Shown here one piece after another: positions 15,267 to 45,422 of a stretch of DNA of 64,000 nucleotides. Below the pieces are notes generated by a model, which saw only the letters and a program-made list of their open reading frames with translations, did no database searches and was not told where the DNA came from. The stretch's first letter is position 1. Each line of letters opens with the position of its first letter. The stretch is from the sequence record OL451225.1; one strand, written 5' to 3'. The DNA is from Escherichia phage P896. Made by a program: the position numbers and the translations under genes.

Positions 15267-15694
15267 TGTTTATTATCCCTGATGATTACGAATTAACTCT
15301 TGAAAACATCGAAAGTGTTTCCGAAGAAGCTCAGGGACAATTTGATTCATTATCTGAAGCCTTAGAAAAAGACGATATAAATATTATTGTAGAAAACATG
15401 TTTGCAGCCAGTGAATACGAAAAAGCAACGGTTATCGGCGCTCTGAATGAAGGTGTTCAGCTTAACGAATTTATCGTTAAACATGTATCGTCTCGCGGTG
15501 AGTTAACCCGCACAAAAGACCGAGCTACTCGTAAGCGTAATGCTTTCCAAACAACTGGTCTTTCTAAAGCTAAACGTCGTCAAATTGCCCGTCTGGCTAC
15601 TAAAACGAAAAGAGCAAACCCATCTACGCAAATCAGAGCAGAGCGCAAGCGCAAAAAAGCTCGAGCTAAGCGTAAAGCATTCGGACTTGATTAA
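15266..15694 (+). CDS. 68: prohead core protein gp68
   Basis: 142 aa with basic C-terminus; T4 synteny. Confidence 0.8.
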
Positions 15695-16332
15695 TGGAAC
15701 AGAAACCAGAGTTACTAATCGAACACTGGGGTCAACCGGGCGAAATTAAAGATGGTGTACCTATGTTGGAATCTCATGATGGTTCCAGCAGCGGTTTAAA
15801 GCCAGGACTTTATATTGAAGGTATTTTCCTACAAGCTGAAGTTGTTAACCGTAATAAACGACTTTATCCTAAACATATTTTGGAAAAAGCCGTTGCGGAC
15901 TATATCGCCGAACAGGTTGAAACCAAGCAGTCTCTTGGAGAATTAAACCATCCACCTCGCGCAAACGTTGACCCTATGCAGGCAGCAATTATTATCGAGG
16001 AAATGTGGTGGAAAGGGAATGATGTATATGGCCGCGCGCGTATTATCGAAGGCGACCATGGCCCAGGCGATAAACTTGCTGCGAATATAAGAGCAGGTTG
16101 GATTCCTGGCGTATCTAGTCGTGGACTCGGTTCCCTGACTAAATCAGCAAAAGGTTATAGCATCGTTAATGAAGGTTTTAAATTGACGGTTGGAGTAGAT
16201 GCAGTATGGGGGCCAAGTGCTCCGGACGCTTGGGTCAAACCAAAGCAGATTACAGAATCACAAACGGCTGTTGCCGATACCAGTGCCGATGACGCCTTTA
16301 TGGCTCTCGCAGAGGCTTTAAAGACGTTATAA
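15694..16332 (+). CDS. 21: prohead core scaffold protein and protease gp21
   Basis: 212 aa, same length as T4 gp21; T4 synteny. Confidence 0.9.
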   Translation: MEQKPELLIEHWGQPGEIKDGVPMLESHDGSSSGLKPGLYIEGIFLQAEVVNRNKRLYPKHILEKAVADYIAEQVETKQSLGELNHPPRANVDPMQAAIIIEEMWWKGNDVYGRARIIEGDHGPGDKLAANIRAGWIPGVSSRGLGSLTKSAKGYSIVNEGFKLTVGVDAVWGPSAPDAWVKPKQITESQTAVADTSADDAFMALAEALKTL

Positions 16333-28986: not shown

Positions 28987-28998
28987 TATTTATAAATA
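28987..28998. promoter_or_regulatory. divergent overlapping late promoters for gp26 (minus) and gp51 (plus)
   Basis: Palindromic TATTTATAAATA gives TATAAATA on both strands (minus 28987-28994, plus 28991-28998). Confidence 0.55.
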
Positions 28999-29022
28999 TC
29001 AATAAAGATAAAAGGGGATTCT

Positions 29023-29775
29023 ATGGCCAATATCGTAAGATGTGAAATGCCAGACGGAGTTCATCGTTTCAAACCGTTTACAGTCGCTGATTACCGTGAT
29101 TTACTGCTTGTGCGAAACGACATGAACAACAAACCCGTCGAAGAACAAAAACAATTATTAGACGAACTGTTGGAAGATTATTTTGGAGAGTATCCGAAAG
29201 CATGGAGACCTTACATATTCCTGAAGGTATTCACTTCCTCTATCGGTAAGACAAAAGTCCCGGTAGCGTTCGAATGTCAAAAATGTAAAAAGACAAAGCA
29301 GACTTTGTTTAATATGAGTCAAGGGCCATTGATAAATCCAACAATGGAAACCGCCGGGATAAAAATACAATTTAAGTTCCCCGAAGTGGAATATAAAGAT
29401 AAGTCGGAGCTTGTTCTAAACACCATCCAGACTGTCGAAGACTCAGAACAAAAGTACAATTGGGAAGACCTTCCTGAAGAAACGAAGATGCAGGTTATCG
29501 ATGCTATTGATATAGAGAGCCTCGAAGAGCTCCTTAAGAAAATGCATTCAGTTTATATCCCATTTACATATGGTTGCTGCGAAAAACACAAAACCGAATA
29601 TACAGACTTGATTGATGTCTTTAAGCTTATCCTTAACCCGGATGAAGTCTTTGTATTTTATCAAATTAACCACTTGCTGGTAAAGAACCAATATACGCTC
29701 GATAGCATCATGCATATGATTCCCATCGAACGAGGTATTGCTTTATCGTTAGTTGAGAAGGACTTGAAGAAATGA
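29023..29775 (+). CDS. 51: baseplate hub assembly catalyst gp51
   Basis: 250 aa; T4 synteny 26-51-27. Confidence 0.8.
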
Positions 29776-30941
29776 CAGCTAAATCTATGCAGCGTGAAGG
29801 CTTTCCTAATATCAGCATACGCCTTTACGAAGATTATGATGCCTGGCTAGAACACCGTTTTGTAGAACTGGCTGCAACATTTACAACCATGACCATGCGC
29901 GATTCTCTTTACGGAAGAAACGAAGGCCTGTTGCAATTCTACGACACAAAGAACTTGCATACAAAAATGAACGGTGAACAAATTATACAAGTCTCCGTTA
30001 AGAATGCTAACTCAGACCGAACCCAATCCAGGATATACGGAAGTAAGCACTTTGCTGTTTCCGTGGATTCAAAGGGTGATAACATAATTACAATTCAGCT
30101 GGCACCGATTCATGAAATTGAAGACCTGAAATTTAGTCGTATGTTTTATCCGAGTGTGCAAGAAACATTAGTAGAAATGACTGGGGTAATTTATCAGGAC
30201 AGACCTTTGCTTGCTCCTCCGATAAACGGTATAAACGTTTATGCTCCTAATGTTCCGTGGTGTGATTCGATGAGCCAGTATATGGAATTCATCAGGGAAG
30301 TTGGTCTTGCGGTTGAATCTGATAAATTTGTATTTGTATGGCAGGATATCGACGGTATAAGTATCCAGGATTATGAATGGTTAACTAAACAAGAACCAAT
30401 TAATTTCGTGGTAGGAGAACCTCGATTGGTTGGTCAGTTTGTACAAAACCTCGATACTCCATTGGCCTTCGATTTCGAATGGTTAACAAAGGCAAACCAA
30501 CACACAAGAAAACCATACGAAAACGCAACCGTGTATGCGCATTCATTCCTTGATAAGAACGCAACCAGAATAACTTTTGGGGAAGGACAAAACAGCATTC
30601 TGGTATCTCGTTCTGGTGGCTATTCGGATTATACATATCGAAATGGTTTCGAGGAAGCACAGCGATTAATAACCATGTCACAATATGACGGTTACGCGCA
30701 TTGCAAAACATACGGGAACTTTGAATTAACTCCGGGCGATAAGATAAATTTCTATGACCCGAAGAACCAATTCAAATATGATTTTTACGTAGACGAAGTT
30801 ATTCATGAAGTGAGTAACAATACATCAATTACAAACCTCTATATGTTTACCAATGGTAAGCCTATCGAAGTTGAAGAACCACCGAAGGTTAAAAATGAAC
30901 TTAAAACTGATTCTGCCGACGAAGAAAATACAGCTGGGTGA
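29772..30941 (+). CDS. 27: baseplate hub subunit gp27
   Basis: 389 aa; ATGA overlap with gene 51; T4 synteny. Confidence 0.9.
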
Positions 30942-31413
30942 TAAAGAGATTCATGTACCTAAGCTTGGACTTAAGCATCACAATCTGATTAAAAACGAAC
31001 CTAATCCTTATGCTGCATTAAGAAAGATTATGCAATCGATATTCCCTAATCTTACAGCAGCCGAATCCGACTTTGTATCTTTACATCTTCTGGAATTCAA
31101 TGGTAAACTAAAAGACAAACGCGAGATTAATGGATTTACATATAAGCTGGATGATGTTTATATCTGTCAGCGCCTTGAATTCTCTTATCAAGGAAAGACA
31201 TTTAAATTCCGCTCTAATAAACCGTATGAAGAATTCGGACCAGTTGACAATCTCCTGGAGACCCTTTATCTCGGGGAAGATGTTCCAGACTTTCTGGATA
31301 TGCCTGCTTTTGTTGCTAAGTGGGCAGACGATATCACAAGCACATTAGCAATCCCGGGCCCGAATGGTCCTGTTAAGGGGTTACTGAAAATAATGGAACT
31401 CCTAAATGAATAA
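30895..31413 (+). CDS. 28: baseplate hub distal subunit gp28
   Basis: Start at [11 protein letters not shown] with AAGG RBS (track ORF extends further upstream in frame); 172 aa. Confidence 0.8.
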
Positions 31414-33151
31414 GAACTCCGAACAAACGAGCTTCAGACGCGGTGGACCTAATAAAAAGCTTATCGAAGAATTAGCACCACAAAGGAGGGCGGAAGCCCT
31501 CTCTGCTGAACAGAATGATGAATTATCGAATCTGAATACAACTCTTACAAATACTCAGGCTGCAACCGAACTTGTATCGGAAGCTATTGAGGATAAGGGT
31601 AATCAGATTATCGAGAATATCCAAACCAATAATGGAGTCCTCCAGGATATCAGTGCTGGGGTTGAACTGACGGCTGAAGCCACCGAGAAGACTCAACAAG
31701 GGATTAAAAACCTCACGGACATTCTCTCGGATAAGCTCGACAAACTCAGTGCAATGATAAGCGGTAAAATAGGCGTCACGTCTCCTGTGGCTGGTTCTGA
31801 AAGCCTTAAACCTGTGGAGGATGCACTACCAGAGCCTGAAGAGAATAAGCCCACAGCGAGCGTTCCAGCGCTCATACCGCCTGAAGAACAAAAGCCTGAC
31901 GCTGACTTCATTCCGGAGCCAGAACAGCCAAAAACCGATGCAGAAGGTAAAGAGACTAATACCTGGTCACTTGGTGATAAGCTTGACACCCTTTCGAAGA
32001 TAACCGAAAAAGGATTTAAGGCATCGGTTTCTGTTGCTGACCGAATCTCCGGGATGTTGTTCAAATATACAATTACGGCAGCAGCCGAAGCAGCCAAGCT
32101 TATTGGTGGATTATTGTTGTTGGTATTCGGTATCGATGCGATACGAGTTTACTTCCAATATTTCATGAAGCAATTCGAAAAAGGATGGGCCGAATTTAAT
32201 GATAAGTTCAAAGAATGGGGACCGTTGCTCGAAGGACTAATGACTTGGGCTAAGAACGCCCAGGCGATGTTTAGTGAAAAGAATTGGTTGGGATTAGCTG
32301 AAGCTATTATCCGTGGGATGGTCAACTTAACGAAGAACATGGCTCAACTTCTTATGCTTGGTATTTCGAAACTGATTTCAGCTATCTTAAGCAAAATCCC
32401 TGGGATGGGCGATTTAGCAGATAATGTGGAAGCCTCAGCTTTGATGTCTTATCAGCAAAATACAGGGGCAACTCTGGATGATGAAGACCAAACCAAGATA
32501 GCAAAATATCATGACAAACGTTCGGCTGAAGCAATGGAAGCTGCAGAGAAGATGAATAAGAAGTATAAGGATAAACCTGAACTAATTAATCAAGCCGAAA
32601 AATATGGTAACCTTACCAAGGAACAAGCTGACCAGCTTCGCGCGGGTGGTATTGACACAAGCTTCAGAGACCTTCCGGAAGAAGAACGTCTGGACTATTT
32701 CAAGAAGCGTGACAAAGCACAGGCTGATATTATTCGTTTGACCCAAACTGCGGATAACTTAATGAAGCCAGACGCAACCGATAAAAAGAATGCGATGGAA
32801 ATGAGAGCTAACATTGAAAAACAATTAGCTGACCCAGCTATGGCAAAAGGTGGAGCTCCGAAAGACCTGAATATGCGCGCCCTGTTGGAAAAACTTGATA
32901 AGTCTCTTGAGAAGTTCAAAGACGAACCGAAAGTTAAACCGCCGGATGTTAAGACTTCTCCGGATGCACAACAAGCTGCGAAGGTAGACGAAGGCATGAA
33001 GGCCAAAGAAAATAAATACAAGGATGCACCGGCTCAGGCACAAATTAACACGGTCAATAATATTCAGAAGACTTCCAGGACGCAATACAATATGCCTCCT
33101 CAAAGTTCAACCCCTGCCCCTGGCATGAGACAGGCCACGAGAATTAACTAA
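31406..33151 (+). CDS. 29: baseplate hub subunit / tail length determinator gp29
   Basis: 581 aa, helical, with a hydrophobic segment; T4 synteny. Confidence 0.85.
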   Translation: MNKNSEQTSFRRGGPNKKLIEELAPQRRAEALSAEQNDELSNLNTTLTNTQAATELVSEAIEDKGNQIIENIQTNNGVLQDISAGVELTAEATEKTQQGIKNLTDILSDKLDKLSAMISGKIGVTSPVAGSESLKPVEDALPEPEENKPTASVPALIPPEEQKPDADFIPEPEQPKTDAEGKETNTWSLGDKLDTLSKITEKGFKASVSVADRISGMLFKYTITAAAEAAKLIGGLLLLVFGIDAIRVYFQYFMKQFEKGWAEFNDKFKEWGPLLEGLMTWAKNAQAMFSEKNWLGLAEAIIRGMVNLTKNMAQLLMLGISKLISAILSKIPGMGDLADNVEASALMSYQQNTGATLDDEDQTKIAKYHDKRSAEAMEAAEKMNKKYKDKPELINQAEKYGNLTKEQADQLRAGGIDTSFRDLPEEERLDYFKKRDKAQADIIRLTQTADNLMKPDATDKKNAMEMRANIEKQLADPAMAKGGAPKDLNMRALLEKLDKSLEKFKDEPKVKPPDVKTSPDAQQAAKVDEGMKAKENKYKDAPAQAQINTVNNIQKTSRTQYNMPPQSSTPAPGMRQATRIN

Positions 33152-33159
33152 GGAATAAC

Positions 33160-34254
33160 ATGAAAGTAAAAGAACTCGATATTGATATTGCGAGTTTATT
33201 TAACGGAGGTTCTAAGACCTCCGCTGGGCAGTCAAAAGCTGCCCAGACTCAAGCTACTATTGTGGCGCAATATCCAGCAGAACGAGCTTCCGGTAATGAT
33301 TCTTCAGATGATATGCGAGTTAATGACCTTTATAAAAATGGTCTGTTATTCACGGCATACAATTTCAGTTCAAGAACATCTCCGGAATTACGCTCAGACA
33401 GGTCAAGCCAATTGACTTCATTAAAGAAAGTTTCCAATGGTGCTTCATTTAACCCGGTTAAAAGTTTAACATCTTTTACTAAATCGAAATTAACCGGCGC
33501 TGGCTCAACAGGTAAAAGTTTTGATTCGAACGCTGTTGCAAATATCCTATTGCCTCGTTCGAAGTCTGATGTAGAATCCGTGTCGCATCGATTCAATGAT
33601 GTTGGTGAGTCTCTTATTACGAAAGGCGGTGGCTCAGCTACTGGCATTCTTAGTAACATCGCATCGACTGCAGTTTTCGGCGCACTCGAATCAGTTACAA
33701 ACGGTGTAATGGCCGACCATGGCGAACAGATTTACACAACGGCAAGAAGCATGTATGCTGGTCCAGATAACCGGACAAAAGTTTACACATGGGAAATGAC
33801 TCCACGTTCGGCCCAGGACTTAATCCAGATAGTGAAGATATATGAGATTTTTAACTATTACTCCTATGGGGAAACCGGTAAAAGTTCGTTTGCTTCCGAG
33901 CTGAAAGAAAAAATCGATACATGGTATAAATCCACCTTCAAAAAAGAAGCAATCGATAACTTTGACGGCAAGTTGCTCGGTGAAGAGATAACAAGCTTCC
34001 TAACGAACGTTCTGGTGGTCTCTAACCCTACTATCTGGTATATCCGCAACTTCGGCGATACAAGCTCGTACGATGGTCGTGGGGAGCTATTTGGGCCGTG
34101 TCAGATTCAGAGCATAAGATTCGATAAATCCCCGGATGGTCATTTCGGTGGATTAGCTATTGCTCCTAACCTGCCATCGACTTTTGTACTTGAAATCACT
34201 TTCCGTGAAATCATTACGCTTAACCGTGGCTCATTATATGCGGAAGGTTTCTAA
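33160..34254 (+). CDS. 48: baseplate tail tube cap gp48
   Basis: 364 aa, same length as T4 gp48; T4 synteny. Confidence 0.9.
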   Translation: MKVKELDIDIASLFNGGSKTSAGQSKAAQTQATIVAQYPAERASGNDSSDDMRVNDLYKNGLLFTAYNFSSRTSPELRSDRSSQLTSLKKVSNGASFNPVKSLTSFTKSKLTGAGSTGKSFDSNAVANILLPRSKSDVESVSHRFNDVGESLITKGGGSATGILSNIASTAVFGALESVTNGVMADHGEQIYTTARSMYAGPDNRTKVYTWEMTPRSAQDLIQIVKIYEIFNYYSYGETGKSSFASELKEKIDTWYKSTFKKEAIDNFDGKLLGEEITSFLTNVLVVSNPTIWYIRNFGDTSSYDGRGELFGPCQIQSIRFDKSPDGHFGGLAIAPNLPSTFVLEITFREIITLNRGSLYAEGF

Positions 34255-35195
34255 TGTTTACTTTACAAGAATTTCAAACACAAGCGATTAATATCGACTT
34301 GCAGAGGAATAACCTTTTTAGTGTGGTCTTCGCGACCGCACCTTCCTCTAAATCTCAGAATCTTCTGGACCAGTTTGGTGGCGCATTATTCAGCAACCTT
34401 CCTGTTAACTCAGATTGGTTCGGATTAACACAAGGTGACTTAACTCAAGGGATAACAACTCTTGTTACTGCCGGGACACAAAAGCTTATTCGTAAATCAG
34501 GGATAAGCAAATATCTTATCGGGGCAATGAGTAACCGTGTTGTGCAATCATTATTAGGTGAATTTGAGGTTGGTACTTACCTGCTTGATTTCTTTAATAT
34601 GGCTTATCCAACGGCTGGTCTATTAGTTCACTCTGTTAAGCTTCCGGATAACACATTGAACTACGAAATGGACCTTAACCATAATGCGCCAAATATCAAG
34701 ATAACAGGGAGAGAATATTCTCCGTTGGTATTGAGTTTTAGAATGGATTCAGAGGCGGGGAACTTCAGAGCATTTAACGATTGGGTTAACTCTGTACAGG
34801 ACCCAGTTACCCAGCTAAGGGCTTTGCCTGAAGACGTTGAAGCTGATATTCAGGTTAACCTTCATTCGCGTAATGGGTTACCGCATACGGTTGTTATGTT
34901 AACTGGTTGTGTTCCTGTGAGTGTATCAGCGCCTGAATTGAGCTATGAAGGGGATAATCAGATAGCTACATTTGATGTTACTTTTGCTTATCGTGTTATG
35001 TCAACTGGTGCGGTGGGAAGAACTGCAGCATTAGAATGGTTGGAAGATAAGGTTATTAAAGGTGTATCTGGTATTAGTTCAGATAACAACTTGAACTCAG
35101 AAGTTGCCAAATTGAGTCGCTTGTCTGGTGCTCAATCTGGATTAACAAGTCTATACAATACGTTCACTGGTTCTGGGAGTCAACGTATATTATAA
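34254..35195 (+). CDS. 54: baseplate tail tube initiator gp54
   Basis: 313 aa; ATGA overlap with gene 48; T4 synteny. Confidence 0.9.
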   Translation: MFTLQEFQTQAINIDLQRNNLFSVVFATAPSSKSQNLLDQFGGALFSNLPVNSDWFGLTQGDLTQGITTLVTAGTQKLIRKSGISKYLIGAMSNRVVQSLLGEFEVGTYLLDFFNMAYPTAGLLVHSVKLPDNTLNYEMDLNHNAPNIKITGREYSPLVLSFRMDSEAGNFRAFNDWVNSVQDPVTQLRALPEDVEADIQVNLHSRNGLPHTVVMLTGCVPVSVSAPELSYEGDNQIATFDVTFAYRVMSTGAVGRTAALEWLEDKVIKGVSGISSDNNLNSEVAKLSRLSGAQSGLTSLYNTFTGSGSQRIL

Positions 35196-35202
35196 AAAGA
35201 AA

Positions 35203-35224
35203 GGGACCCGAAGGTCCCTTTTTT
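35203..35224. terminator. bidirectional terminator after gene 54
   Basis: GGGACCcgaaGGTCCC hairpin followed by TTTTTT. Confidence 0.65.
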
Positions 35225-35513
35225 ATTTGCGGAATGAAATGAAACCTGCTGCAGTCATGACAACTTCTTTCTTAGCAAAGACTGTAATTGCAATTGGTGC
35301 TTCGGACTCAAGTTGCCCAGTTACTACACCATTAAAAATATTTTCTGTTTGTTCAGAATTTACAAAGTTTTCAACAGGGCGAAGGTCAAACTTCTTATCT
35401 TCGCCAAACACGCGCCGCAGTTCATTACCCACCGCGCTGTCAAACTCTTCTGAAGCCGGGATAACATTCTCAACTACCAGTTCCTGACCATTAAAGCGAA
35501 AAGATGATTTCAT
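35223..35513 (-). CDS. hypothetical protein (alt.-1 position)
   Basis: Start at MKSSFRFNGQ with GAGGA RBS; 96 aa. Confidence 0.6.
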   Translation of the reverse strand: MKSSFRFNGQELVVENVIPASEEFDSAVGNELRRVFGEDKKFDLRPVENFVNSEQTENIFNGVVTGQLESEAPIAITVFAKKEVVMTAAGFISFRK

Positions 35514-35544
35514 TTTGTTTTCCTCATGTGCAATTGATATGAAC

Positions 35545-35574
35545 ATTGTATCGCACTTCCTTGTGCTTGTAAAC
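35545..35574 (-). promoter_or_regulatory. early promoter
   Basis: Minus strand GTTTAC, 18 bp, TACAAT. Confidence 0.5.
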
Positions 35575-35576
35575 CC

Positions 35577-37637
35577 CTACGAAAGGAATTTAGGAGGAAT
35601 AGCTTCCAAATTAATACAACTAGCAAGAATACCAAGACCTTGATTGACTTTCTTCGTTACCCCAGAGGATGCAAACGATGCAAAGTCAACAGATTCTGCT
35701 GGCTCTTCTGTTTCCTCGCCCTGATAAACGACAAGCTCACCAGTTTCCATCAACACATCACCATCATAGATAACTGCATTTTCATCCAGTTGGTCCGTAG
35801 TCTGGATATCAGCTTCCAGCATTTTGACGTTCGCGTTTCCTTGATACGAAGCATCAGTAATTTTGGTAATCTTAACTACAGTCCCACGAGGAAGAATAAC
35901 TTCCTGCTCGGACGGGTTGCTTGACAATTCCCCAGGAACAATTACGTTAATTAAGTCCGCCCCAGAAATTTTCCAACCAACATGCATCATTACGTGGTCG
36001 CGGCGTGCATCCGGCATATCTGGTAAAACAATTTCGTCATCAGCCTGGAAAGATGTCCCATCACGATAGTCCTGATGAACTGCAGCCATAGCAACGTTCG
36101 CCACCCAGCCACCAAAGATAATCGGTTTAAACGACGTTGATACATAGTTCCTGAAATAAAATAATTTAGATTTCTTAATTTTATCAAATGTAGGAACGTT
36201 TAAATATTGACCACGCCAAAGAGTTGTATTAGGCGGCAACTTATGTCCAATTTCAAAGGCCGAATCCAATTCCTTAATTGTTTCGACAACTCTGTCTAGA
36301 TTTAGGAATTCAGCTTCTTCTTCATAATATTTGCCCATCAAATAATTATTAATATCGGCATAGTTTGCTCCACAATAATCTGCAATTGCTTCTCGCTGGC
36401 CATAATGGAAACGGTTGTCAGTATACCCTGCTGTGAAATTAAGAGTATTTTCTGATGCTTCTTCGGCAAAGTCTTTAACTGCAACACGAATGGCGCTTGT
36501 GTATTCTTTTTCCCAGAGCGAGGCTGCATAAGTGGCTGCATCCAGGTTAGGAGGAGCATCATTCATTTTTCTTTCGATAAATGCGGCTTTGCGAAGGTTA
36601 AGAATCTCTGCGCATGATTCGGCAAAAATCTGCATCTGCTTCATACTACCAACCGGAGCACGTTTAAGTTCACGATGCATACGGTTAAAAATTGGGTCAG
36701 AGTCTTCAACACGAATTTCTTCTTTCCAAACACCATTTGCTCGCATAGCCTCATCTGCTGCACGCATACGAGCCATAGTATTCGTTTCAGAAGGTCGAAC
36801 AAAAATTTCCAGTTCTTCATAATCATCGATAAGTTCTGCCGTAGCCGGTCGACTAAACTTAGCAGCTTCTGCATCAATTTCGTCCCAACCGTCTGGTACG
36901 GAATCACTTGGAGCGTACTGGGCTTGTGCAATAGCTCGGCGACTGATTTTAGTTTTCTGGGCAACAGCAGCATCGGTCTTTTTGTTTGCTGCGTCAATCA
37001 GAACTTCGGCTGCGATTTCTTGTTTGGAGACTTGTGCGCCTGTATCTTTATTAGTGAATACATCGCCGACTTTAGTTTCAACTTTTTGATATTTCTCAGG
37101 GACCGGTGGCATACCATCAACCGAAAGCAGGTCAACACCCTTTTTGTACATAATTACATAAGCGTTCTTTTTACCGAGGCCGGAAGCATTCGGAAGAACA
37201 TGATAACGCCCGCTGGTTTTCATTTGAATCAGTCGATTCATAATACGAATAACAGCTTGGTCTTGTCCTTTCATCTTTTTGGATGGGAAACGGAACAAGA
37301 CTACATCAGGTTTGCCTAGTTTAATGCTTTCCCAGACTGTAACAAAAATCAGGTTAATCGCATCAAGAGGTTTTTCACCTAGACCACCCTTCAGAGGAAT
37401 AGCATGGCCATGTGAAGTCCCGGATAACAGGAATACCTCGGCAATTGCATCGCCACGTTTATATTGTTTAACTGTTTCTTTGCCCGTGAATTGCATCAAA
37501 CGGGCCATAAGAGAATTGGTCCCAGGAACACCGAATTGCCAAACCTGCGGGACCTTGTATTTTGGATTCATATTAATGACAGGATAACCGAAGGCTTCGA
37601 TATATTTGTCAAAGAGTTCATTTAATTGTTCAGACAT
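35577..37637 (-). CDS. alt: Alt-family ADP-ribosyltransferase (internal head protein), copy 1
   Basis: 686 aa; N-terminal LNE|LF motif of the prohead-protease type; C-terminal ART signature ...YVSTSFKPIIFGG...EQEVILPRGT. Confidence 0.85.
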   Translation of the reverse strand: MSEQLNELFDKYIEAFGYPVINMNPKYKVPQVWQFGVPGTNSLMARLMQFTGKETVKQYKRGDAIAEVFLLSGTSHGHAIPLKGGLGEKPLDAINLIFVTVWESIKLGKPDVVLFRFPSKKMKGQDQAVIRIMNRLIQMKTSGRYHVLPNASGLGKKNAYVIMYKKGVDLLSVDGMPPVPEKYQKVETKVGDVFTNKDTGAQVSKQEIAAEVLIDAANKKTDAAVAQKTKISRRAIAQAQYAPSDSVPDGWDEIDAEAAKFSRPATAELIDDYEELEIFVRPSETNTMARMRAADEAMRANGVWKEEIRVEDSDPIFNRMHRELKRAPVGSMKQMQIFAESCAEILNLRKAAFIERKMNDAPPNLDAATYAASLWEKEYTSAIRVAVKDFAEEASENTLNFTAGYTDNRFHYGQREAIADYCGANYADINNYLMGKYYEEEAEFLNLDRVVETIKELDSAFEIGHKLPPNTTLWRGQYLNVPTFDKIKKSKLFYFRNYVSTSFKPIIFGGWVANVAMAAVHQDYRDGTSFQADDEIVLPDMPDARRDHVMMHVGWKISGADLINVIVPGELSSNPSEQEVILPRGTVVKITKITDASYQGNANVKMLEADIQTTDQLDENAVIYDGDVLMETGELVVYQGEETEEPAESVDFASFASSGVTKKVNQGLGILASCINLEAIPPKFLS

Positions 37638-37646
37638 TTTTAACCC

Positions 37647-39521
37647 TTAATTGAGAAGGTGTACAAGTTTTTCCATAGACAAATCATAAGAGATTCTGTC
37701 ATATTTTTTCAAAAGCGAATTTGATTCGTCTATCTGGTCATTTTCTAAGATAGAGCATTCAACGAGAATGTATTTACCCATCGAACCCATCATGCCAGCT
37801 GTAGCACCATAGACTTTATCAATCTTAAGCATTGTTCCACGTGGAAGAATAACTTCGGTTTCAACGGACCAGTTTGCCAGGTCACCAGGAATAACTACCT
37901 TGATATTTTCTGCACCTTTGATAATCATACCAATCTTGATTGTAGGTTTCGCCGAACCAGTTGCACTTTTAATAGTTGCATCGATTGCCCCATCATCGAT
38001 ATCACTCGATAATGCATTTGGGTCAAGGTTCGCAGCGGTGTGGCCCATACGACCGAAAATATTTGGCGCCAGAGATGTACTCGCAAACATAGGAAGATAC
38101 ATCGTTTTATTTTTGATGGAATTAATTGCCATATCGGTTGGCATGACTTGAGCACGGTAGATGATAGTTCCTTTTGGAAGCTTAACACCGTTTTCAAATA
38201 CTTTATCCATATCGGAAATCATTTTGATTTCGCTTTCTTTTGCGTCAGCTTTCCCTAGCAGGAAATTATTGATTGCAGTATATTTTCCGCGAGTATATGC
38301 CTTAATTGCTTCGGCCTGGTCTTCAGTTATTTCAGGGTTGTCGGAGATATGAAATAATGGTTGGATGGCCTTGGTGTAAATTTCATCTGCGATAATACGA
38401 ATAGCTTCTTTAGTCTTATCTTCGCGCGCCCAGGTCCCCACAATGGAGTCGTCAAGCAACATATCAGCAACTCTGCGCAATGTATCAACAGGATTCTTTG
38501 AGGCCCGCAGGACGTTCGAAAACTCACTTATTTTGTGTTCCATGCCAACTTCTTTAAGAGCATTAAACACATCCATGGCTACACGAGTTTTTGTCTTATC
38601 TTCACCAACACCACCTTGTGCAACTAAATCAAAATAGTCTGCATACTCATCACCCGCACGGTCGATTACTTTTATTGAAGCTTTAGCTATCTGACTTTCT
38701 CTGGCATCATCTGCTGAATGCACTGCGCTACTGGTCGAGAGTTTTGTATAAATCTCTTTGTGCTCTGGTGAGAATTTAGCAAGGCCAGTTGGTTCGTTCC
38801 CCGAATACAATGCGTTAATAGCTGCGCGTTTAGAAAACTTGGTTTTAACAACAACTGCCTGGTCTGTACGTTTTTCTTCAACCTTTGCAATAGAGGCCGC
38901 AATAGCTTCATTCTTGGTAACAGTTTCGCCGGTGGCTTTGTCTACATAAACATCACCGACTTTCGATTCCACTTTTGTGTACAATTCGGTATTGATGCCA
39001 GGAATTCCGGCGATAGATTCAATTGGTTTGGATTTACGATAAATCAATACGTAAGTATGTTTACCCGTGTACTGATACATATCATCCAGAACTTTGAACT
39101 GACCGCCGGCACGGGCCATAATAAGCCGAGCAAGAACACGCTGAATAGTTCGTTCTTGTCCCTTCATTTTGCGGGTCGGGAAGCGGAACATAATTGCATC
39201 CATTTTCATCAGTTTTACTTGTTCGTAAACTACATCAAAAATGGATTTAATTGCTCCAATCGGGTTATCACCAAGACCACCTTTAAGAATAGCTGGAGTA
39301 CCGTTTGAATTTAATGACATCAAAATAACGTGTGCATACTTATCGCCAGTTTTGACCTGTTTAATAGCATCGCCTTCGGATGCGTAAGACACCATACGAG
39401 CAATAAGATTATCATTCCCCGGGACCTGGATATTCCAAATCTGTGGAACTTTTGACTTTGAAAGGTTAATGGCCGGGATATTAGATTCCCCTTCAAAAAC
39501 CTCTGACAATAATTCGGTCAT
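37647..39521 (-). CDS. Alt-family ADP-ribosyltransferase, copy 2 (tandem paralog)
   Basis: 624 aa; shares the N-terminal region with copy 1 (KVPQIW..., LKGGLG, RFP.KKMKGQ, TKVESKVGDV); ART signature ...FASTSLAPNIFG...ETEVILPRGT. Confidence 0.85.
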   Translation of the reverse strand: MTELLSEVFEGESNIPAINLSKSKVPQIWNIQVPGNDNLIARMVSYASEGDAIKQVKTGDKYAHVILMSLNSNGTPAILKGGLGDNPIGAIKSIFDVVYEQVKLMKMDAIMFRFPTRKMKGQERTIQRVLARLIMARAGGQFKVLDDMYQYTGKHTYVLIYRKSKPIESIAGIPGINTELYTKVESKVGDVYVDKATGETVTKNEAIAASIAKVEEKRTDQAVVVKTKFSKRAAINALYSGNEPTGLAKFSPEHKEIYTKLSTSSAVHSADDARESQIAKASIKVIDRAGDEYADYFDLVAQGGVGEDKTKTRVAMDVFNALKEVGMEHKISEFSNVLRASKNPVDTLRRVADMLLDDSIVGTWAREDKTKEAIRIIADEIYTKAIQPLFHISDNPEITEDQAEAIKAYTRGKYTAINNFLLGKADAKESEIKMISDMDKVFENGVKLPKGTIIYRAQVMPTDMAINSIKNKTMYLPMFASTSLAPNIFGRMGHTAANLDPNALSSDIDDGAIDATIKSATGSAKPTIKIGMIIKGAENIKVVIPGDLANWSVETEVILPRGTMLKIDKVYGATAGMMGSMGKYILVECSILENDQIDESNSLLKKYDRISYDLSMEKLVHLLN

Positions 39522-39546
39522 ATTGTTTTCCTTATAAAATATGATG

Positions 39547-39554
39547 TATTTATA
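39547..39554 (-). promoter_or_regulatory. late promoter TATAAATA upstream of the alt tandem
   Basis: Minus-strand TATAAATA 26 nt upstream of the copy-2 ATG, AAGGA RBS. Confidence 0.55.
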
Positions 39555-39579
39555 CGAAAAAAGGACCGAAGCCCTTTTG

Positions 39580-41121
39580 TTATTTTAATCCAGTCTTTGA
39601 CCAGTCGCCAAATACATCTTCGAATGTGTCTGCATGGTCTTTATCGAAACGGAACCCTTTGATAATCGGCAGGAACAATGCAACCGTATTATCTTTACGA
39701 GTCTCGGAAGTCAACCAACCATTACATTCACAGTCGGCAATCATTCCAACCAATTCGCCTTTACGGGCTTTAACCATCAAGGCTTCACGGTCCATTTCAT
39801 GACGCTCCTCAATCGGAATAGTAACCCATTTTTTGGTTTTCTTATCTTTAACTTGAGTTGTGTCTTTAAAACCAGAACCACAGTTATTTGTAATCTTACC
39901 ACAAGAAGAACGAAGCACAACACCACCAATCTTATTCGGGTCTTTATCGTGCTCGTAATATCCAATGATTTCCATTGCGATGTCAATTACTTCTTTGAAC
40001 TTGTACAAGTTCTTTGAGCGCTTGTTTTCCCAAATCGATGCCATGTTCTTAAGGATAATACCTTCAAGACCTTCATCCACATATTTCTTATAGATAACCT
40101 TCGCTTCATCGAGATTGTTAACAACATGGTTTTCAATCAGAATCATGCGGTCAAAACCATGCAGCACCACGTTATCTGCAATCATCTTTTCCAGAACAGC
40201 AAAACGCACATCGTATTTTAACGGATTGAGTATCTTAACATCAGAATAGACTTCAATCAATGGAACATAATCCCAAACCTGGAATTTCATGCAAGAAGCT
40301 TCTGCTGCAGAAATAGTTCCTTTCAATGATTTGTTTGCCAGACCATTTGAAAAGGTTCTTGATTCCGCGAATTCTGCGAATTCTTTTGCCTTACTAAGCT
40401 CAGGCATATCGTCAAAAAGGAAGCTCAAACCATCATTCTGGGGAGCTATTTTCTGTTCATGATATACTAACTCGCCGTCAATCAAAACGCCCTCAGGATG
40501 TCTCTCACGCGCTTCACGGGTAGCTTCAATCAATTCCTTTTTAAGGAGGTCAAGCTTGAGGTATTCGTTGCCAGCTCGGGATAACAATCGAACATCATCC
40601 AACTCATCGCCACGAACTTCTGCAAAACACCGAGCGCCGTCGGCTTTCAATTGTGCAAAGGCCGGGAACTTAATGTTCTTGGCAATACCGGCTTCATCAT
40701 AGGAAGAAGCGAGCATCTGCGGTTGTTCAGGAATTAAACCTTTCCAAACCTTATTTGCAATTGATACGGATGCCCCGCATTCCAGGTCACGCATCATAAC
40801 ACGCCGCAGGACTTCAACATCTGCTTTTTTACCATCAGCAATATAGCCAGATAATTCCTCGATTGCAGCATTACCTGTTAATTTACGAGAGGCTAATGTG
40901 AATTCAATAAAGTCAAGCATATCATCGATATTCAGCATACCAAAGCTTTGAGTCGTTGTCCCAGGTTTTGGCCATTTCTTAATATAGAACTGGATGCCTT
41001 TGGAATATGTCAAACGATACACACGTTTGAGGGTTTCATTGTCAGAATACGATTCCAGAATAGCTTGTTTCTCTTTAGTAGAATCGGTTGCAGCAATTTC
41101 ATTTAAAATATCTAAAATCAT
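39580..41121 (-). CDS. 30: ATP-dependent DNA ligase gp30
   Basis: 513 aa; MILDILNEIAATDSTKEKQAILE...; adenylylation motif KADGAR. Confidence 0.95.
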   Translation of the reverse strand: MILDILNEIAATDSTKEKQAILESYSDNETLKRVYRLTYSKGIQFYIKKWPKPGTTTQSFGMLNIDDMLDFIEFTLASRKLTGNAAIEELSGYIADGKKADVEVLRRVMMRDLECGASVSIANKVWKGLIPEQPQMLASSYDEAGIAKNIKFPAFAQLKADGARCFAEVRGDELDDVRLLSRAGNEYLKLDLLKKELIEATREARERHPEGVLIDGELVYHEQKIAPQNDGLSFLFDDMPELSKAKEFAEFAESRTFSNGLANKSLKGTISAAEASCMKFQVWDYVPLIEVYSDVKILNPLKYDVRFAVLEKMIADNVVLHGFDRMILIENHVVNNLDEAKVIYKKYVDEGLEGIILKNMASIWENKRSKNLYKFKEVIDIAMEIIGYYEHDKDPNKIGGVVLRSSCGKITNNCGSGFKDTTQVKDKKTKKWVTIPIEERHEMDREALMVKARKGELVGMIADCECNGWLTSETRKDNTVALFLPIIKGFRFDKDHADTFEDVFGDWSKTGLK

Positions 41122-41396
41122 TTAATATCTCTTCTGGTCATAAAGATTCTATTATAAGCTACTTCATCTTGAAGCTCATTTAAAGTCTTTTGATATGTAT
41201 TAATCCAACGTCTACCACGAGAGGTTGTTACAAAATACTCGGAGATGTAAATAAATCCTTGTTCAACACATTCCATGAATATTTTTTCATATCTAGCTTG
41301 GTTGTATAAAGGCTTTGCTCGTAAGAACTGTGTCACATTCCCGTAATCATGGGTAGAACATCTTCCGTCTGAAATATCATGAACGACAAACATCAA
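41118..41396 (-). CDS. hypothetical protein (30.1 position)
   Basis: 92-aa ORF, ATGA-coupled to the ligase gene. Confidence 0.6.
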   Translation of the reverse strand: MMFVVHDISDGRCSTHDYGNVTQFLRAKPLYNQARYEKIFMECVEQGFIYISEYFVTTSRGRRWINTYQKTLNELQDEVAYNRIFMTRRDIK

Positions 41397-42217
41397 TTAC
41401 CCCCTTGGCCACCGGTCGGTTGGTTGTACCAATATTCAATGCCAGTACCTACGCGTGGACCATATTGATATGGATATGCTGGATTATAACCAGGAGTCCA
41501 TGGTTGACCTGGTTGCCAGCCTTGTTGCATTTGTTGTTGAAGACGGCGAGTTTCACGAAACAGCTCTTCCAGTTTACGGAGTTCATCAGGGGTGAATTCT
41601 GGTTTGACTGGTTCATCTTTGTGTTTCAGTTTAAGCTGCCCAGCTACATCGTCCCAATTAAAAACTTTGGAAGCTGTTTTAGGAATAGCATCACGTTCAC
41701 CACGAGCCATCCAATAAACCGGAATCTCAAGGATTTCACTCGCATGGTCGCAATGGTGTGCAAGGTCATCAATATAACAAACGACATTATATTTGGTCTT
41801 CGCCTTCTGGAATAACTCTTCTTTAGAAGCTGTATGGCCGCACATCATCACTTCTTTAAATGCACCAGGGAACAAAGCATTCAGGTTGAATTGACGATTC
41901 AGACGGGCGTCAATGGAATCACCCAGAGCCGTAACAGCCACAAAATCATATTGCTCTTTGAGGTTATTAATAACCCTTAACGCATCTGCGTAAGGAGACA
42001 AATAGCGAATAAAATCTGAACAGTTATATTTCTCAATCAACTGTGCTCCCAACTCTTCATCACAATTGAACAGTTTACCAGGGGTCACAAATTTTTCATC
42101 CTGAATCATCTTAAGGATATGTTCCAGGGGTAAATTATATTTTTGGGCGAAATAAGGCAAGCCAGACTGCCATGACAAACATACGCCATCAATATCTGTT
42201 AAAATAACGGGTTTCAT
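41393..42217 (-). CDS. HAD-superfamily hydrolase (nucleotidase-like) with Q/P/G/Y-rich C-terminal tail
   Basis: 274 aa; N-terminal ILTDIDGV HAD motif I; C-terminal low-complexity ...QQQMQQGWQPGQPWTPGYNPAYPYQYGP... Confidence 0.7.
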   Translation of the reverse strand: MKPVILTDIDGVCLSWQSGLPYFAQKYNLPLEHILKMIQDEKFVTPGKLFNCDEELGAQLIEKYNCSDFIRYLSPYADALRVINNLKEQYDFVAVTALGDSIDARLNRQFNLNALFPGAFKEVMMCGHTASKEELFQKAKTKYNVVCYIDDLAHHCDHASEILEIPVYWMARGERDAIPKTASKVFNWDDVAGQLKLKHKDEPVKPEFTPDELRKLEELFRETRRLQQQMQQGWQPGQPWTPGYNPAYPYQYGPRVGTGIEYWYNQPTGGQGGN

Positions 42218-42699
42218 AATGCATCTCTCAATTGGTTAAGTATGTCAATAAATTCTTGTTCAGTCAATATTGTATCATGAACAGTAAGGTGACTCGCCAT
42301 CGAATGCTTTAAAACTTTGCCCTTTGTAGCTTGTAATGCGTCGCGGAATCCTTTGTTTTGGAGCGCTGCTTCAAAATAAGCATTTGTATACAACTCTTTC
42401 CATGATGTAGAGTATCTTGAAAAGGGAATTCCAAGCCAGAAAAGCGTCCCACGGTCCGCAGCTCTCGCATAAGCTCTTCCACTTTGCTGGGCGGCCAGGC
42501 CGGACATCCCAAATATACGTTTTTGTTGTTCATGATTTCTCACCTTACACCCTTGCAGGAAGCCTTCAAGACCTCCAAACTGGATGCCCTCCATAACAAA
42601 AGGCCATTTAGCAAAGTTACTTAATGCACATGATGGCCATGGGAAATTGCTTCTGATTTCTAACTCAGACATCTTTGACACTGATAATCTTGGTTGCAT
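42214..42699 (-). CDS. NADAR / YbiA-like (DUF1768) domain protein
   Basis: 161-aa ORF (start may be at MSELEIR, 42672); ...SNFAKWPF...EGFLQGCK... matches the YbiA pattern xSNFAxWP...EHYFQAQKF. Confidence 0.65.
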   Translation of the reverse strand: MQPRLSVSKMSELEIRSNFPWPSCALSNFAKWPFVMEGIQFGGLEGFLQGCKVRNHEQQKRIFGMSGLAAQQSGRAYARAADRGTLFWLGIPFSRYSTSWKELYTNAYFEAALQNKGFRDALQATKGKVLKHSMASHLTVHDTILTEQEFIDILNQLRDAL

Positions 42700-42877
42700 A
42701 CCACATACCGTGGTCCGGTAATCTGGATTTAATTGACCGCCCGCGATATGTTTTTCGCATTACAACAGTCTTAATAGCATCTTCATCACAAGCATATGGA
42801 GGTGATAAATCAATAACACGATAAGTAACTTCAACCATTTCCAAGCCAAACAGCTTTTTAAATAATTTCTTAATCAT
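42665..42877 (-). CDS. small hypothetical protein, tandem paralog A
   Basis: 70 aa; ...EMVEVTYRV.D.SP...IISVKD shared with the neighbouring ORF. Confidence 0.6.
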   Translation of the reverse strand: MIKKLFKKLFGLEMVEVTYRVIDLSPPYACDEDAIKTVVMRKTYRGRSIKSRLPDHGMWYATKIISVKDV

Positions 42878-42886
42878 GAAGGTTCC

Positions 42887-43099
42887 TTAAATATCTTTGA
42901 CGCTGATAATATATACATCAGCCCAATGACCATAACCAGGTAGACGGTCTTTAATAGATAATCCACCGTCAGATTTCAGCATTTTAATTGTTTTAGTATA
43001 TGGTTCAATATTTCGGGCCCATGGACTCACGTCAGTTACGCGATAAGTAACTTCAACCATTTCTGTTCCCAAAATTTTCTGAATCAGTTTCTTAAACAT
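42887..43099 (-). CDS. small hypothetical protein, tandem paralog B
   Basis: 70 aa; paralogous to 42665-42877. Confidence 0.6.
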   Translation of the reverse strand: MFKKLIQKILGTEMVEVTYRVTDVSPWARNIEPYTKTIKMLKSDGGLSIKDRLPGYGHWADVYIISVKDI

Positions 43100-43100
43100 A

Positions 43101-43295
43101 TTATCCTCGCCTTAAACATTTGATTACAGACAGTTCACCGTCCATGCGAACGTCTTCTGTTCCGTCAACCCACAGGACTAGATACGCTTCTTTAATTACA
43201 ATACCACCGAATTTAAAAGCAGGCAAGACCTTAGAAATCATTCCAGGAATACCTACGCCTTTTAACTGGACAGTTTGCGATAGAAATAGTTTCAT
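43101..43295 (-). CDS. hypothetical protein
   Basis: 64-aa ORF packed without gap in the early operon. Confidence 0.5.
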   Translation of the reverse strand: MKLFLSQTVQLKGVGIPGMISKVLPAFKFGGIVIKEAYLVLWVDGTEDVRMDGELSVIKCLRRG

Positions 43296-43612
43296 TAGAA
43301 CCTCATCTGGAAACCGTGTGATTTAACATTACCGCCATTAATATCAGACGAATTGACTTCACGTGCTGCAATTGGGTCAATATCAATGTCGCGGCTAAGC
43401 TTGGTGATTGCCAGCGTATCACGTCCATTAACAGTCCTGAATTCAACTGGGCAAACTATATCCACATAGTTTTTAATGGATTCTTTAGTTGGTTCACACC
43501 CAGCAGGAACATTAGGGCCTTTTTTAGAGAAAACAACTTCACAGAAATTTTTGCGTGTATCAAAGTAAGTAGTCATAAACATAGTATTTTCCTCAAGGGG
43601 CTTTCGCCCCAT
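43295..43612 (-). CDS. hypothetical protein
   Basis: 105-aa ORF (start probably at an internal Met). Confidence 0.55.
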   Translation of the reverse strand: MGRKPLEENTMFMTTYFDTRKNFCEVVFSKKGPNVPAGCEPTKESIKNYVDIVCPVEFRTVNGRDTLAITKLSRDIDIDPIAAREVNSSDINGGNVKSHGFQMRF

Positions 43613-43618
43613 TTAAGA

Positions 43619-43984
43619 TTAGATATCAAATTCATTAAGAACTACATCAAAGATTGCTTCCAGGTGTTCAGGTTTTGCTTTGTTACCCAGGATATGACGA
43701 ATCCAAGTTTTAACCAACAGCTTGCGATTAACACCATTCCAACAAGGATGAGTACCTAAATCACGCTCGCGGAAATCATCATCTAAAGCAATTTTAAAGG
43801 TTGAACCAGTCATAGTGATTGAAAGAGTGATACCATTTTCAAATCGCATATAAACGTAGTTAGGAGTCATATACTGTTCAATTTCGCACACTGAACCATT
43901 TTTATGTTTCCACAGGCAAATAACTTCAGAAGAACCTGGGATGCAGTTAGAAACATATTTGCGTTCAAAGTTGATGTAGTTCAT
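43619..43984 (-). CDS. hypothetical protein
   Basis: 121-aa ORF with RBS. Confidence 0.6.
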   Translation of the reverse strand: MNYINFERKYVSNCIPGSSEVICLWKHKNGSVCEIEQYMTPNYVYMRFENGITLSITMTGSTFKIALDDDFRERDLGTHPCWNGVNRKLLVKTWIRHILGNKAKPEHLEAIFDVVLNEFDI

Positions 43985-44055
43985 TTTATTCTCCAGTTGT
44001 TTTCATTTGTTGGTACAGGTCTATAATATCATAACCTGTACCAAAGTAAACTGTT

Positions 44056-44424
44056 TTATGCGACTTTAATCCAATTATCTAAATTTAATTCACCCTTAGC
44101 TTTCATTTTTTCAATCAAATCATCAGCAGTAGTGCGACCATTTTGATACCATGTAACATCTTCAGAATAACCAGTTTCTTCATCTTCATAGGTCTTACAG
44201 CGAATCTTACCAAGAATCAAAGTTTTCAGTTCGTAGGTATCACCAGTAAAAAAGTTTGTTACCATAATTTTCCAGGAGAAGTCATCAGAAGGACCTTCTG
44301 GAGTCATGCAAGAAACGAATTCAAATTGTTCTTTATACAAGTGCCATTGCATTTCTTTAGTTTCAATGGCTTTGTAACCGTCGTGGTCTTTACCTTTGAT
44401 GTATGAGTTAAGATTGATTTTCAT
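44056..44424 (-). CDS. hypothetical early protein
   Basis: 122-aa ORF directly downstream of a family A promoter cassette; GGAG RBS. Confidence 0.6.
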   Translation of the reverse strand: MKINLNSYIKGKDHDGYKAIETKEMQWHLYKEQFEFVSCMTPEGPSDDFSWKIMVTNFFTGDTYELKTLILGKIRCKTYEDEETGYSEDVTWYQNGRTTADDLIEKMKAKGELNLDNWIKVA

Positions 44425-44495
44425 TTTATTCTCCAGTGTTTTATTGTGTAACTCAGTATGGAATCATTATGCACTGGACCAACCCTGTTGTAAAC
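44425..44495 (-). repeat. early promoter + 5'UTR cassette, family A copy 2
   Basis: GTTTAC (44490-44495), 18 bp, CATAAT (44466-44471), leader TTCCATACTGAGTTACACAATAAAACACTGGAGAATAAA-ATG. Confidence 0.6.
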
Positions 44496-44516
44496 CCCTT
44501 TATGGAAAATAAAAAA

Positions 44517-44534
44517 GGGACTCCGAAGAGTCCC
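44517..44534 (-). terminator. intrinsic terminator after the 53-aa gene
   Basis: GGGACTCcgaaGAGTCCC hairpin followed on the minus strand by TTTTTTATTTTCC. Confidence 0.6.
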
Positions 44535-44539
44535 TGAAC

Positions 44540-44701
44540 TTATGCTTTCGGCTTACCAAAGCAAGCTGCATCGGCACGCAATACCGCACGAGCACGAGCC
44601 TGAAGTTTATCAGTTACCTGATTGATTCGCTTGTTGGACGCACGCTTGTAACCAGCGCGTTTGGAGGAGCCATCAACAACTTTAACTTCTTTCTTAGCCA
44701 T
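44540..44701 (-). CDS. hypothetical small basic protein
   Basis: 53-codon ORF read by hand: MAKKEVKVVDGSSKRAGYKRASNKRINQVTDKLQARARAVLRADAACFGKPKA; weak RBS. Confidence 0.45.
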   Translation of the reverse strand: MAKKEVKVVDGSSKRAGYKRASNKRINQVTDKLQARARAVLRADAACFGKPKA

Positions 44702-44996
44702 ATTAAATTCTCTTTAAAATAGAATGCAGGACTTATTGACATTGCCTGCGCAAGCCCTCGAAGGGAACATTAGGTTTCGGATATTTAACGACAGGATAAC
44801 CATAAACCTCGTCATCATACCAACCACGACTTAGACAGATAACCTTTTTCTGACGCGTGATAGTACAAAATACATTCAAGAGGTACACCACAAAATTATC
44901 GGGGTCTAAAACTATAATGATTCGCAAATCATTAATCAGATAATTCGGTGGCTCCTCGATTTTCTAGCCGCACTAAGGTAGCGAATCACCTACAGC

Positions 44997-45251
44997 TTAC
45001 TTCAGGGTTACGACAAAATGGCGAACAGCTTTACGCGCAGCAGATGCCAGCGGCTTAGCAAATTTCAGTTCATCTTTTGCTTCGAGCACTGCGCGAAGGT
45101 CGGTTTGAATCGGGTTAAGATGTTTGAAATACTGCAGAATTTCCAGTGCTTCGGCTTCAACATCAATAGATGCGCCGTAGTTTTCGTGACCGTTATTCCA
45201 TGCAGTGCGTTGCAGTTCGAGAGCGTGTTGTAATTGTTTGTTTAAAGACAT
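44997..45251 (-). CDS. rIII: rIII lysis-inhibition accessory protein
   Basis: Start at MSLNKQLQHALELQRTAWNNGHENYGASIDVEAEALEIL with GAGG RBS; recognised as rIII-like; position before gene 31. Confidence 0.8.
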   Translation of the reverse strand: MSLNKQLQHALELQRTAWNNGHENYGASIDVEAEALEILQYFKHLNPIQTDLRAVLEAKDELKFAKPLASAARKAVRHFVVTLK

Positions 45252-45422
45252 TTTAGAAGCCTCAATATGAGGTGAATATTTGGTGGACACGTTCTTCTGA
45301 ATTTCACTTCCTTTCGGCAAGTCTCTCAGTTGTAGTCCACCGTTTAGGATTAGCTAACCCAATACACCAGCAAAGCTCTGTATGACATCAACCAATCCAT
45401 ATTATTATTTATAACGCTAATT

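Follow-up and report, generated by a model that had tools for sequence, protein, structure and literature searches.

Alt of phage T4 (gpAlt, NP_049811) is packaged in the head at about 40 copies and ejected into the host (PMC9958956), where it ADP-ribosylates RNA polymerase alpha as well as further host proteins (PMC5512222; PMC9958956). The T4 protease gp21 cuts small N-terminal peptides off gpAlt (PMC9958956). Mapping by mass spectrometry placed cleavage at ITE-6 and, unexpectedly, at LTE-619 (PMC5694885), the second cut taking off 63 C-terminal residues and leaving a mature protein of 68.2 kDa (PMC5694885; PMC9026906). Full or partial duplications of alt are on record for 44RR, RB49 and T4 (Nolan et al. 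2006; PMC1524935), as are alt duplications for Ac42, JS98, Bp7 and ZZ1 (Jin et al. 2014; PMC4177764). Here we consider a tandem pair of alt genes on the minus strand of Escherichia phage P896, within a stretch of 64,000 nt from sequence record OL451225.1 that is referred to below as the window.

At the DNA level the window shares 98.2% identity with Shigella phage SP18 (Gaprivervirus), where two genes of the same order, size and flanks (gene 30, alt.-3, gene 54) are annotated as alta (624 aa, YP_003934835) and altb (686 aa, YP_003934834), both under the name “Alt-like RNA polymerase ADP-ribosyltransferase” (GenBank GQ981382). SP18 Alta is 99.8% identical to the 624-aa protein of the window. 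Because SP18 annotates alta and altb, the pair is already in the public record. It is real, was correctly interpreted and is typical of this phage group, and as a finding it is ordinary, given the SP18 annotation and the alt duplications described in several genome papers. However, whole-module replacement in the center of the protein, a difference in the C-terminal propeptide and precise movement of a cassette between genera sharpen the question of how Alt chooses its targets. In our assessment, the two genes are likely to encode functional, capsid-packaged and injected arginine-type mono-ADP-ribosyltransferases, one resident in the genus and one acquired, probably with different host targets.

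Two alt genes at the T4 alt locus

The two genes are separated by 9 nt (Table 1). They are flanked at one end by gene 54 and alt.-3 and at the other by gene 30 (DNA ligase), 30.1 and 30.2, so the pair occupies the T4 alt locus. Both products match PHROG 802 (“Alt-like RNA polymerase ADP-ribosyltransferase”) end to end, over residues 1-685 of the 686-aa protein (9.5e-225) and 1-603 of the 624-aa protein (4.5e-199). Both also match Pfam PF03496 (ADPrib_exo_Tox, ADP-ribosyltransferase exoenzyme; 2.3e-19 and 2.5e-15, in the same order) and align with T4 Alt over their full length in BLASTP (E 1e-127 and 1e-95). They share with T4 Alt the Alt-specific N-terminal domain of about 235 aa and are collinear with it throughout (35% and 33% identity). 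A PDB sequence search with the 686-aa protein gave no match. Compared with each other, the copies are 32% identical across about 640 residues (E 2e-86). By region, identity is 42% in the N-terminal 236 or so residues, 14% in the middle, 31% in the ADP-ribosyltransferase (ART) domain and 24% in the tail (42 aligned residues). Thus, the claim in an earlier note on this DNA that two full-length Alt-family genes share a conserved N-terminal domain and differ in their central and C-terminal regions holds, with exact coordinates and with C-terminal peptides that are unrelated.

In both proteins the C-terminal ART domain belongs, as in the T4 Alt family, to the R-S-E class (Arg, S-T-S, E-x-E). The catalytic residues are R475, S500-T501-S502 and E577-Q-E579 in the 686-aa protein and R456, S481-T482-S483 and E554-T-E556 in the 624-aa protein, in each case followed by VILPRGT. 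All three elements are invariant in a three-way alignment with T4 Alt (R478, S503-S505, E574/E576), and T4 ModA and ModB, members of the same R-S-E clade as Alt (PMC5512222), align with them at the Arg and at the E-x-E. Across 129 family members, the first Ser and both Glu residues are present in every sequence and the Arg in all but one (128/129). The earlier note had read the ART signature as intact in both genes and had proposed an alignment with T4 Alt, ModA and ModB. That alignment finds the catalytic residues in both copies and, with the family columns, confirms the reading. We also considered whether either copy is a pseudogene or inactive, and ruled this out on the intact catalytic residues and a ratio of non-synonymous to synonymous substitution rates (dN/dS) of 0.02-0.18.

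The sites at which T4 Alt is cleaved have counterparts in both proteins. LNE-7 of the 686-aa protein and LSE-7 of the 624-aa protein align with ITE-6, in a column that reads (L/I/F/Y)-x-E in 129/129 homologues. Similarly, LDE-619 and IDE-599 align with LTE-619, where (L/I/V/M)-x-E is found in 128/129. The N-terminal L-x-E of gp21 type that had been noted earlier is therefore a conserved feature of the family at that position. Cutting at these sites would leave products of 68.7 kDa (residues 8-619) and 64.9 kDa (residues 8-599), respectively; the same mass calculation gives 68.2 kDa for mature T4 Alt, equal to the published value. The window also encodes a gp21-like protease (15694-16332), a T4-type portal, core proteins, gp22, gp23 and Inh, and we infer that both Alt proteins are cleaved and packaged. 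Another tandem pair of head-protein paralogues, the second in the window, is formed by two gp24-like vertex protein genes, 19207-20487(+) (426 aa) and 20488-21771(+) (427 aa); their products are 56% identical, and both match the major-head-protein PHROG.

Upstream of the 624-aa gene there is a T4-type late promoter octamer, TATAAATA, as the earlier note had also recorded, and an AAGGA ribosome-binding site lies between it and the ATG. The octamer occurs 20 times in the window, against 4.3 expected. The copy at 39554-39547(-) has no companion on its strand from 28994 to 45406 and so should serve both alt genes. The 9-nt gap ahead of the 686-aa gene contains AAGGG, and the sequence suggests that both genes belong to a single late transcription unit. 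In addition to its position between gene 30 and alt.-3/gene 54, the locus thus has the predicted late promoter expected of a T4 alt locus, and the promoter is identical base for base in VR20, a relative with a single alt gene. In phage WG01, the position homologous to TATAAATA, upstream of ORF201 (L005 4930-5000), is occupied by CATAAATA, one base off the canonical late-promoter octamer and ahead of a three-gene alt array.

Both ends of this predicted unit carry further signals. A hairpin (AAAAGGGC-TTCG-GTCCTTTT, followed by a T-run) after gene 30 looks like a terminator, which would keep transcription of the ligase gene apart from that of the alt late unit. T4-like genomes have a conserved terminator ahead of alt (PMC1524935), and VR20 carries the same element with a perfect stem. 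A terminator consensus scan of the window did not call this hairpin, in which the stem includes a G-T pair and the T-run lies partly in the stem. At the other end, the alt.-3 region has a sigma-70/T4-early-like promoter of its own (TTTACA-17-TACAAT, 35573-35545(-)) and a strong terminator (35221-35200) common to the convergent gene 54; with this region the alt late unit reaches its 3' boundary. The alt.-3 homologue is listed as 35223-35546(-), with the length of 107 aa that is also annotated in SP18. Because the Pfam match begins at residue 12 and the promoter ends at the first ATG, translation probably starts at 35513, where an ATG would yield the 96 aa of the T4 protein. In T4, alt.-3 mutants with a C-terminal extension escape the CmdTAC defence (PMC11618068).

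Table 1. Features of the alt locus in the window; domain boundaries are predicted
Feature	Position (nt)	Strand	Remarks
alta-type Alt paralogue	37647..39521	-	624 aa, 68.6 kDa
N-propeptide, residues 1-7 (624-aa)	39501-39521	-	predicted
N-domain, residues 8-237 (624-aa)	38811-39500	-	predicted
Helical middle module, residues 238-396 (624-aa)	38334-38810	-	predicted
ART domain, residues 397-599 (624-aa)	37725-38333	-	predicted
Catalytic residues (624-aa)	R456, 38154-38156; STS 481-483, 38073-38081; ETE 554-556, 37854-37862	-	
Short basic C-peptide, residues 600-624 (624-aa)	37650-37724	-	after IDE-599
altb-type Alt, genus-resident copy	35577..37637	-	686 aa, 76.6 kDa
N-propeptide, residues 1-7 (686-aa)	37617-37637	-	predicted
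N-domain, residues 8-240 (686-aa)	36918-37616	-	predicted
Helical middle module, residues 241-411 (686-aa)	36405-36917	-	predicted
ART domain, residues 412-619 (686-aa)	35781-36404	-	predicted
Catalytic residues (686-aa)	R475, 36213-36215; STS 500-502, 36132-36140; EQE 577-579, 35901-35909	-	
T4-like acidic C-propeptide, residues 620-686 (686-aa)	35580-35780	-	after LDE-619
1.89-kb cassette	37638..39527	-	6-nt leader, 624-aa gene, 9-nt spacer; blastn vs VR20
Late promoter TATAAATA, T4-type	39547..39554	-	25 nt upstream of 624-aa ATG
Hairpin AAAAGGGC-TTCG-GTCCTTTT + T-run	39557..39578	-	directly 3' of gene 30 stop codon
alt.-3 (DUF5498) region	35200..35573	-	own promoter and terminator

Origin and evolution of the 624-aa gene

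Most Gapriverviruses (VR20, RZ, CJ20, P479 and others) match both flanks of the 624-aa gene at 97% but are without a stretch of 1.89 kb, which we refer to as the cassette. In blastn against VR20, the flanks are 97-98% identical, the match breaks at 39528 (6 nt ahead of the 624-aa ATG) and it resumes at 37637, exactly at the 686-aa ATG. The junction alignment shows that the hairpin, promoter and ribosome-binding-site region is common to the window and VR20, so that the cassette sits exactly between the resident promoter and ribosome-binding site and the resident alt ATG. Its only carriers are SP18, phage 212, PSD2001 and DCP80. In the 141-kb record of the last of these, an Escherichia phage (PQ671644, L008), the altb homologue is reduced to 426 nt and abuts rIIA-region genes. 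This suggests that the assembly is broken, or the genome extensively rearranged, at the alt locus, and DCP80 was left out of the altb comparisons owing to the shortened gene.

Outside the SP18 group, the closest relative of the 624-aa protein is ORF201 of the Dhakavirus WG01, the first of three tandem alt genes (63% identity overall; 71% in the N-domain, 49% in the middle and 70% in the ART domain). Its N-domain is 64-71% identical to those of all Dhakavirus Alts, against 42% for the neighboring 686-aa protein. Given the clean VR20 junctions and this Dhakavirus affinity, the 624-aa gene is, as judged from sequence comparison, an acquired cassette and not an in-place duplicate, with recombination from a Dhakavirus-like alt array as the apparent route. 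In T4, the remnants alt.-1 and alt.-2 (L003 3066-3451) match the 624-aa N-domain (window 39183-39515) better than that of the 686-aa protein (39% and 36% by tblastn), and alt.-2 matches only the 624-aa gene. Consequently, the second alt that T4 has lost may be of the 624-aa lineage.

Both genes are under strong purifying selection. Between the window and PSD2001, alta has 55 synonymous and 5 non-synonymous differences (dN/dS 0.024); values for altb are 0.07-0.18, comparable to those for ligase (0.05-0.07). The 22 amino-acid differences that separate the altb product from that of SP18 are clustered in the ART domain, and 8 of them fall in a hypervariable patch at residues 540-551 (window 35985-36020(-)), a loop modeled with low confidence between S-T-S and E-x-E. 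For altb of the window, VR20 and PSD2001 are nearer relatives than SP18, but the nearest to alta are 212 and SP18. These different closest relatives indicate recombination inside the pair.

Do the two enzymes act on different targets?

By homology with T4, both genes would be transcribed late from TATAAATA and both proteins would enter the prohead core, where the gp21 protease encoded in the same window would trim each of them after its N- and C-terminal motifs. The mature enzymes would then leave the capsid together with the DNA and use NAD+ to ADP-ribosylate host proteins. Of the two, the 686-aa protein is the resident Alt of the genus and the 624-aa protein the recombinational newcomer. They have the N-domain and the ART fold in common, differ in middle module, in ARTT and variable loops and in C-propeptide, and probably modify different sets of host proteins.

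In predicted models the middle region of both proteins consists of about 160-170 helical residues, and across the family the middle modules are of three discrete types. Type I (T4 and the 686-aa protein) and type II (the 624-aa protein) show no profile-profile similarity (hhalign probability 0.3%), whereas type II and type III (WG01 ORF199, Dhakavirus) give a weak match (63%). The ARTT loop ahead of the E-x-E is conserved inside each paralogue type and different between types (PGDLANWSVETE in the 624-aa protein, PGDLANWSTETE in its WG01 orthologue and PGELSSNPSEQE in the 686-aa protein). At the C terminus, the 686-aa protein has a propeptide of 67 aa with a pI of about 4, 56% identical to that of T4. 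The 624-aa protein ends instead in 25 basic residues unrelated to it, a short form found only in the SP18-like and WG01 ORF201-like clusters. This difference lies beyond the conserved cleavage motif and therefore probably affects the precursor (its targeting, tethering or latency) rather than the enzyme in mature form; the copies probably differ here between removable propeptides. Different host targets for the two enzymes are plausible, with indirect support from the unrelated middle modules and the type-specific ARTT loops.

Several observations weigh against the interpretation of two injected enzymes with separate targets. (L/I)-x-E is a weak motif, and each protein contains seven instances of a bare [LI]xE, which is why we place weight on positional conservation and not on the tripeptide. 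The 624-aa copy is without the acidic C-propeptide of about 60 residues found in 123/129 relatives, and its packaging or regulation could differ as a result. Also, the shared N-domain and ART core could equally go with overlapping targets and a simple dosage effect. In the form in which the pair is redundant, both copies modifying RNA polymerase alpha and the other known substrates for more activity or as a backup, this last explanation draws on the common catalytic triad, N-domain and promoter, and on Alt being non-essential in T4 (PMC9026906) and promiscuous in vitro (PMC5512222). We nevertheless consider it unlikely. The ART domains are only 31% identical and the middle modules unrelated, the ARTT loops follow paralogue type, with conservation from the SP18 orthologue to that of WG01, and so old a divergence under a dN/dS of about 0.03 is unexpected for a copy kept for dosage only. 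Furthermore, according to a preprint, the Alt variant of one T-even phage cannot replace that of another in evading Mokosh type I (bioRxiv 10.1101/2025.11.20.689424), a result that also fits different targets for the two copies.

The short, basic and unrelated C-peptide, where nearly all relatives have some 60 acidic residues, could also mean that the 624-aa copy is not a virion protein at all and either acts late inside the producing cell (compare the early ModA/ModB) or is inactive baggage. This is improbable, because the copy keeps the N-propeptide motif, a full N-domain, the C-terminal cleavage motif and late-promoter control, has an intact catalytic site, evolves under strong purifying selection, and has been retained in the same short form in WG01-type phages. 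As to origin, the genes are adjacent, co-oriented and of the same architecture, and T4 keeps the remnants of such a duplication. A tandem duplication of the resident alt in situ, followed by divergence in the SP18 lineage, would account for all of this, yet we give it very little credence: the gene is missing altogether from sister phages with 97% identity in the two flanks, and the 624-aa protein is nearer to Dhakavirus (63% to WG01 ORF201; 64-71% in the N-domain) than to its neighbor (32% and 42%). Gene loss in VR20-like phages would produce the same junction but leaves the Dhakavirus affinity unexplained. We therefore retain as the likely interpretation a resident and an acquired injected enzyme with probably distinct targets.

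The N-domain and comparison with known systems

We asked whether the N-domain serves generally as a delivery module joined to other effectors, and set this idea aside. A profile search with it recovered only 70 clusters among 1.84 billion representatives, nearly all of Alt length, and 6 of 10 proteins of unusual length still bear an ART domain. Those clusters that were checked are Alt-like proteins, short fragments with the N-domain only, or the N-domain joined to a remainder without a known family. In P0174 (1142 aa), P0180 (541 aa), P0173 (485 aa) and P0177 (347 aa), the Alt N-domain is at the N terminus, and no ART domain or other Pfam or PHROG family was recognizable in the remainder; these proteins may be fusions of the N-domain to other effectors, or fragments. 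With the N-domain alone as query, tblastn found 1,747 places in 1,201 phage records.

The predicted model of the N-domain offers a lead. Its elements run in the order strand (109-115), short helical turn (116-119), a K118-x-x-G121 loop, helix (123-137), strand, helix and strand, which resembles the beta4 / motif A / alpha3 / beta5 / alpha4 / beta6 core of GNAT proteins. K118 and G121 are invariant among the 129 family members. The last position of GNAT motif A, (Q/R)-x-x-G-x-(G/A), is G or A in 102 of the 129, whereas the window copies have E and D (KMKGQE and KMKGQD, compared with KTAGQA in T4 Alt). No sequence-level GNAT signal was detected in the N-domain, and searches of the isolated N-domains and middle regions against a Pfam copy without PF26846, at E up to 10, returned only the edge of the ART domain. 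PF26846 is precomputed for all homologues. We found no publication describing a GNAT-like fold in the Alt N-domain. If true, it would add a new element to a classic protein of which two-thirds is non-catalytic.

A broader interpretation can be offered tentatively, and we think it possible without expecting it to hold. In this scheme the alt locus would be a horizontally exchanged array of capsid-injected effectors, in which the N-module (with its predicted GNAT-like fold and invariant K-x-x-G) and the propeptides serve packaging, while unrelated middle modules, together with ARTT and hypervariable loops, retarget the ART domain to different host proteins and possibly to separate defence systems. 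Proteins of the 624-aa type, which end in a short basic C-peptide, would on this view form a functional class of their own, and the N-domain might have a second, acyl-CoA-dependent activity. Recent work links Alt to the evasion of host defences (MazF; Mokosh type I), and both R265 of RNA polymerase alpha and MazF are known T4 Alt targets. Since Alt variants are not interchangeable, natural phages with two or three diverged Alt paralogues are ready material for studies of Alt target choice.

Set against known systems, the locus is closest to SP18, from which it hardly differs. With T4 Alt the pair shares the R-S-ExE site, a location flanked by genes 30 and 54, the late promoter and both (L/I)-x-E columns. 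However, T4 has a single intact alt, with a duplicated 5' part of the gene surviving as the remnants alt.-1 and alt.-2, whereas the window has two intact genes, and the 624-aa protein departs from T4 Alt in its unrelated middle and in having a basic C-peptide of 25 residues in place of an acidic one of 63. ModA and ModB are early proteins of about 200 aa that lack the N-domain, middle module and propeptides and are about 20% identical to the T4 Alt ART domain; with the window proteins they align in the catalytic core only. The window proteins, at 624 and 686 aa, are multidomain and encoded in a predicted late unit rather than being single-domain products of an early region, and no modA or modB was found in the 64,000 nt. 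The Dhakavirus alt arrays (ORF201, ORF200 and ORF199 in WG01; alta and altb in JS98) are likewise tandem, co-oriented paralogues at the same locus, three in WG01 and two in JS98; two or three alt genes in an array are also on record for Bp7, 44RR and Acinetobacter phages. The orthologue of the 624-aa copy is WG01 ORF201, which has 631 aa and a short C-peptide and comes first in its array. The window thus combines a first member of Dhakavirus type with the resident alt of Gaprivervirus, in two copies compared with the three of WG01.

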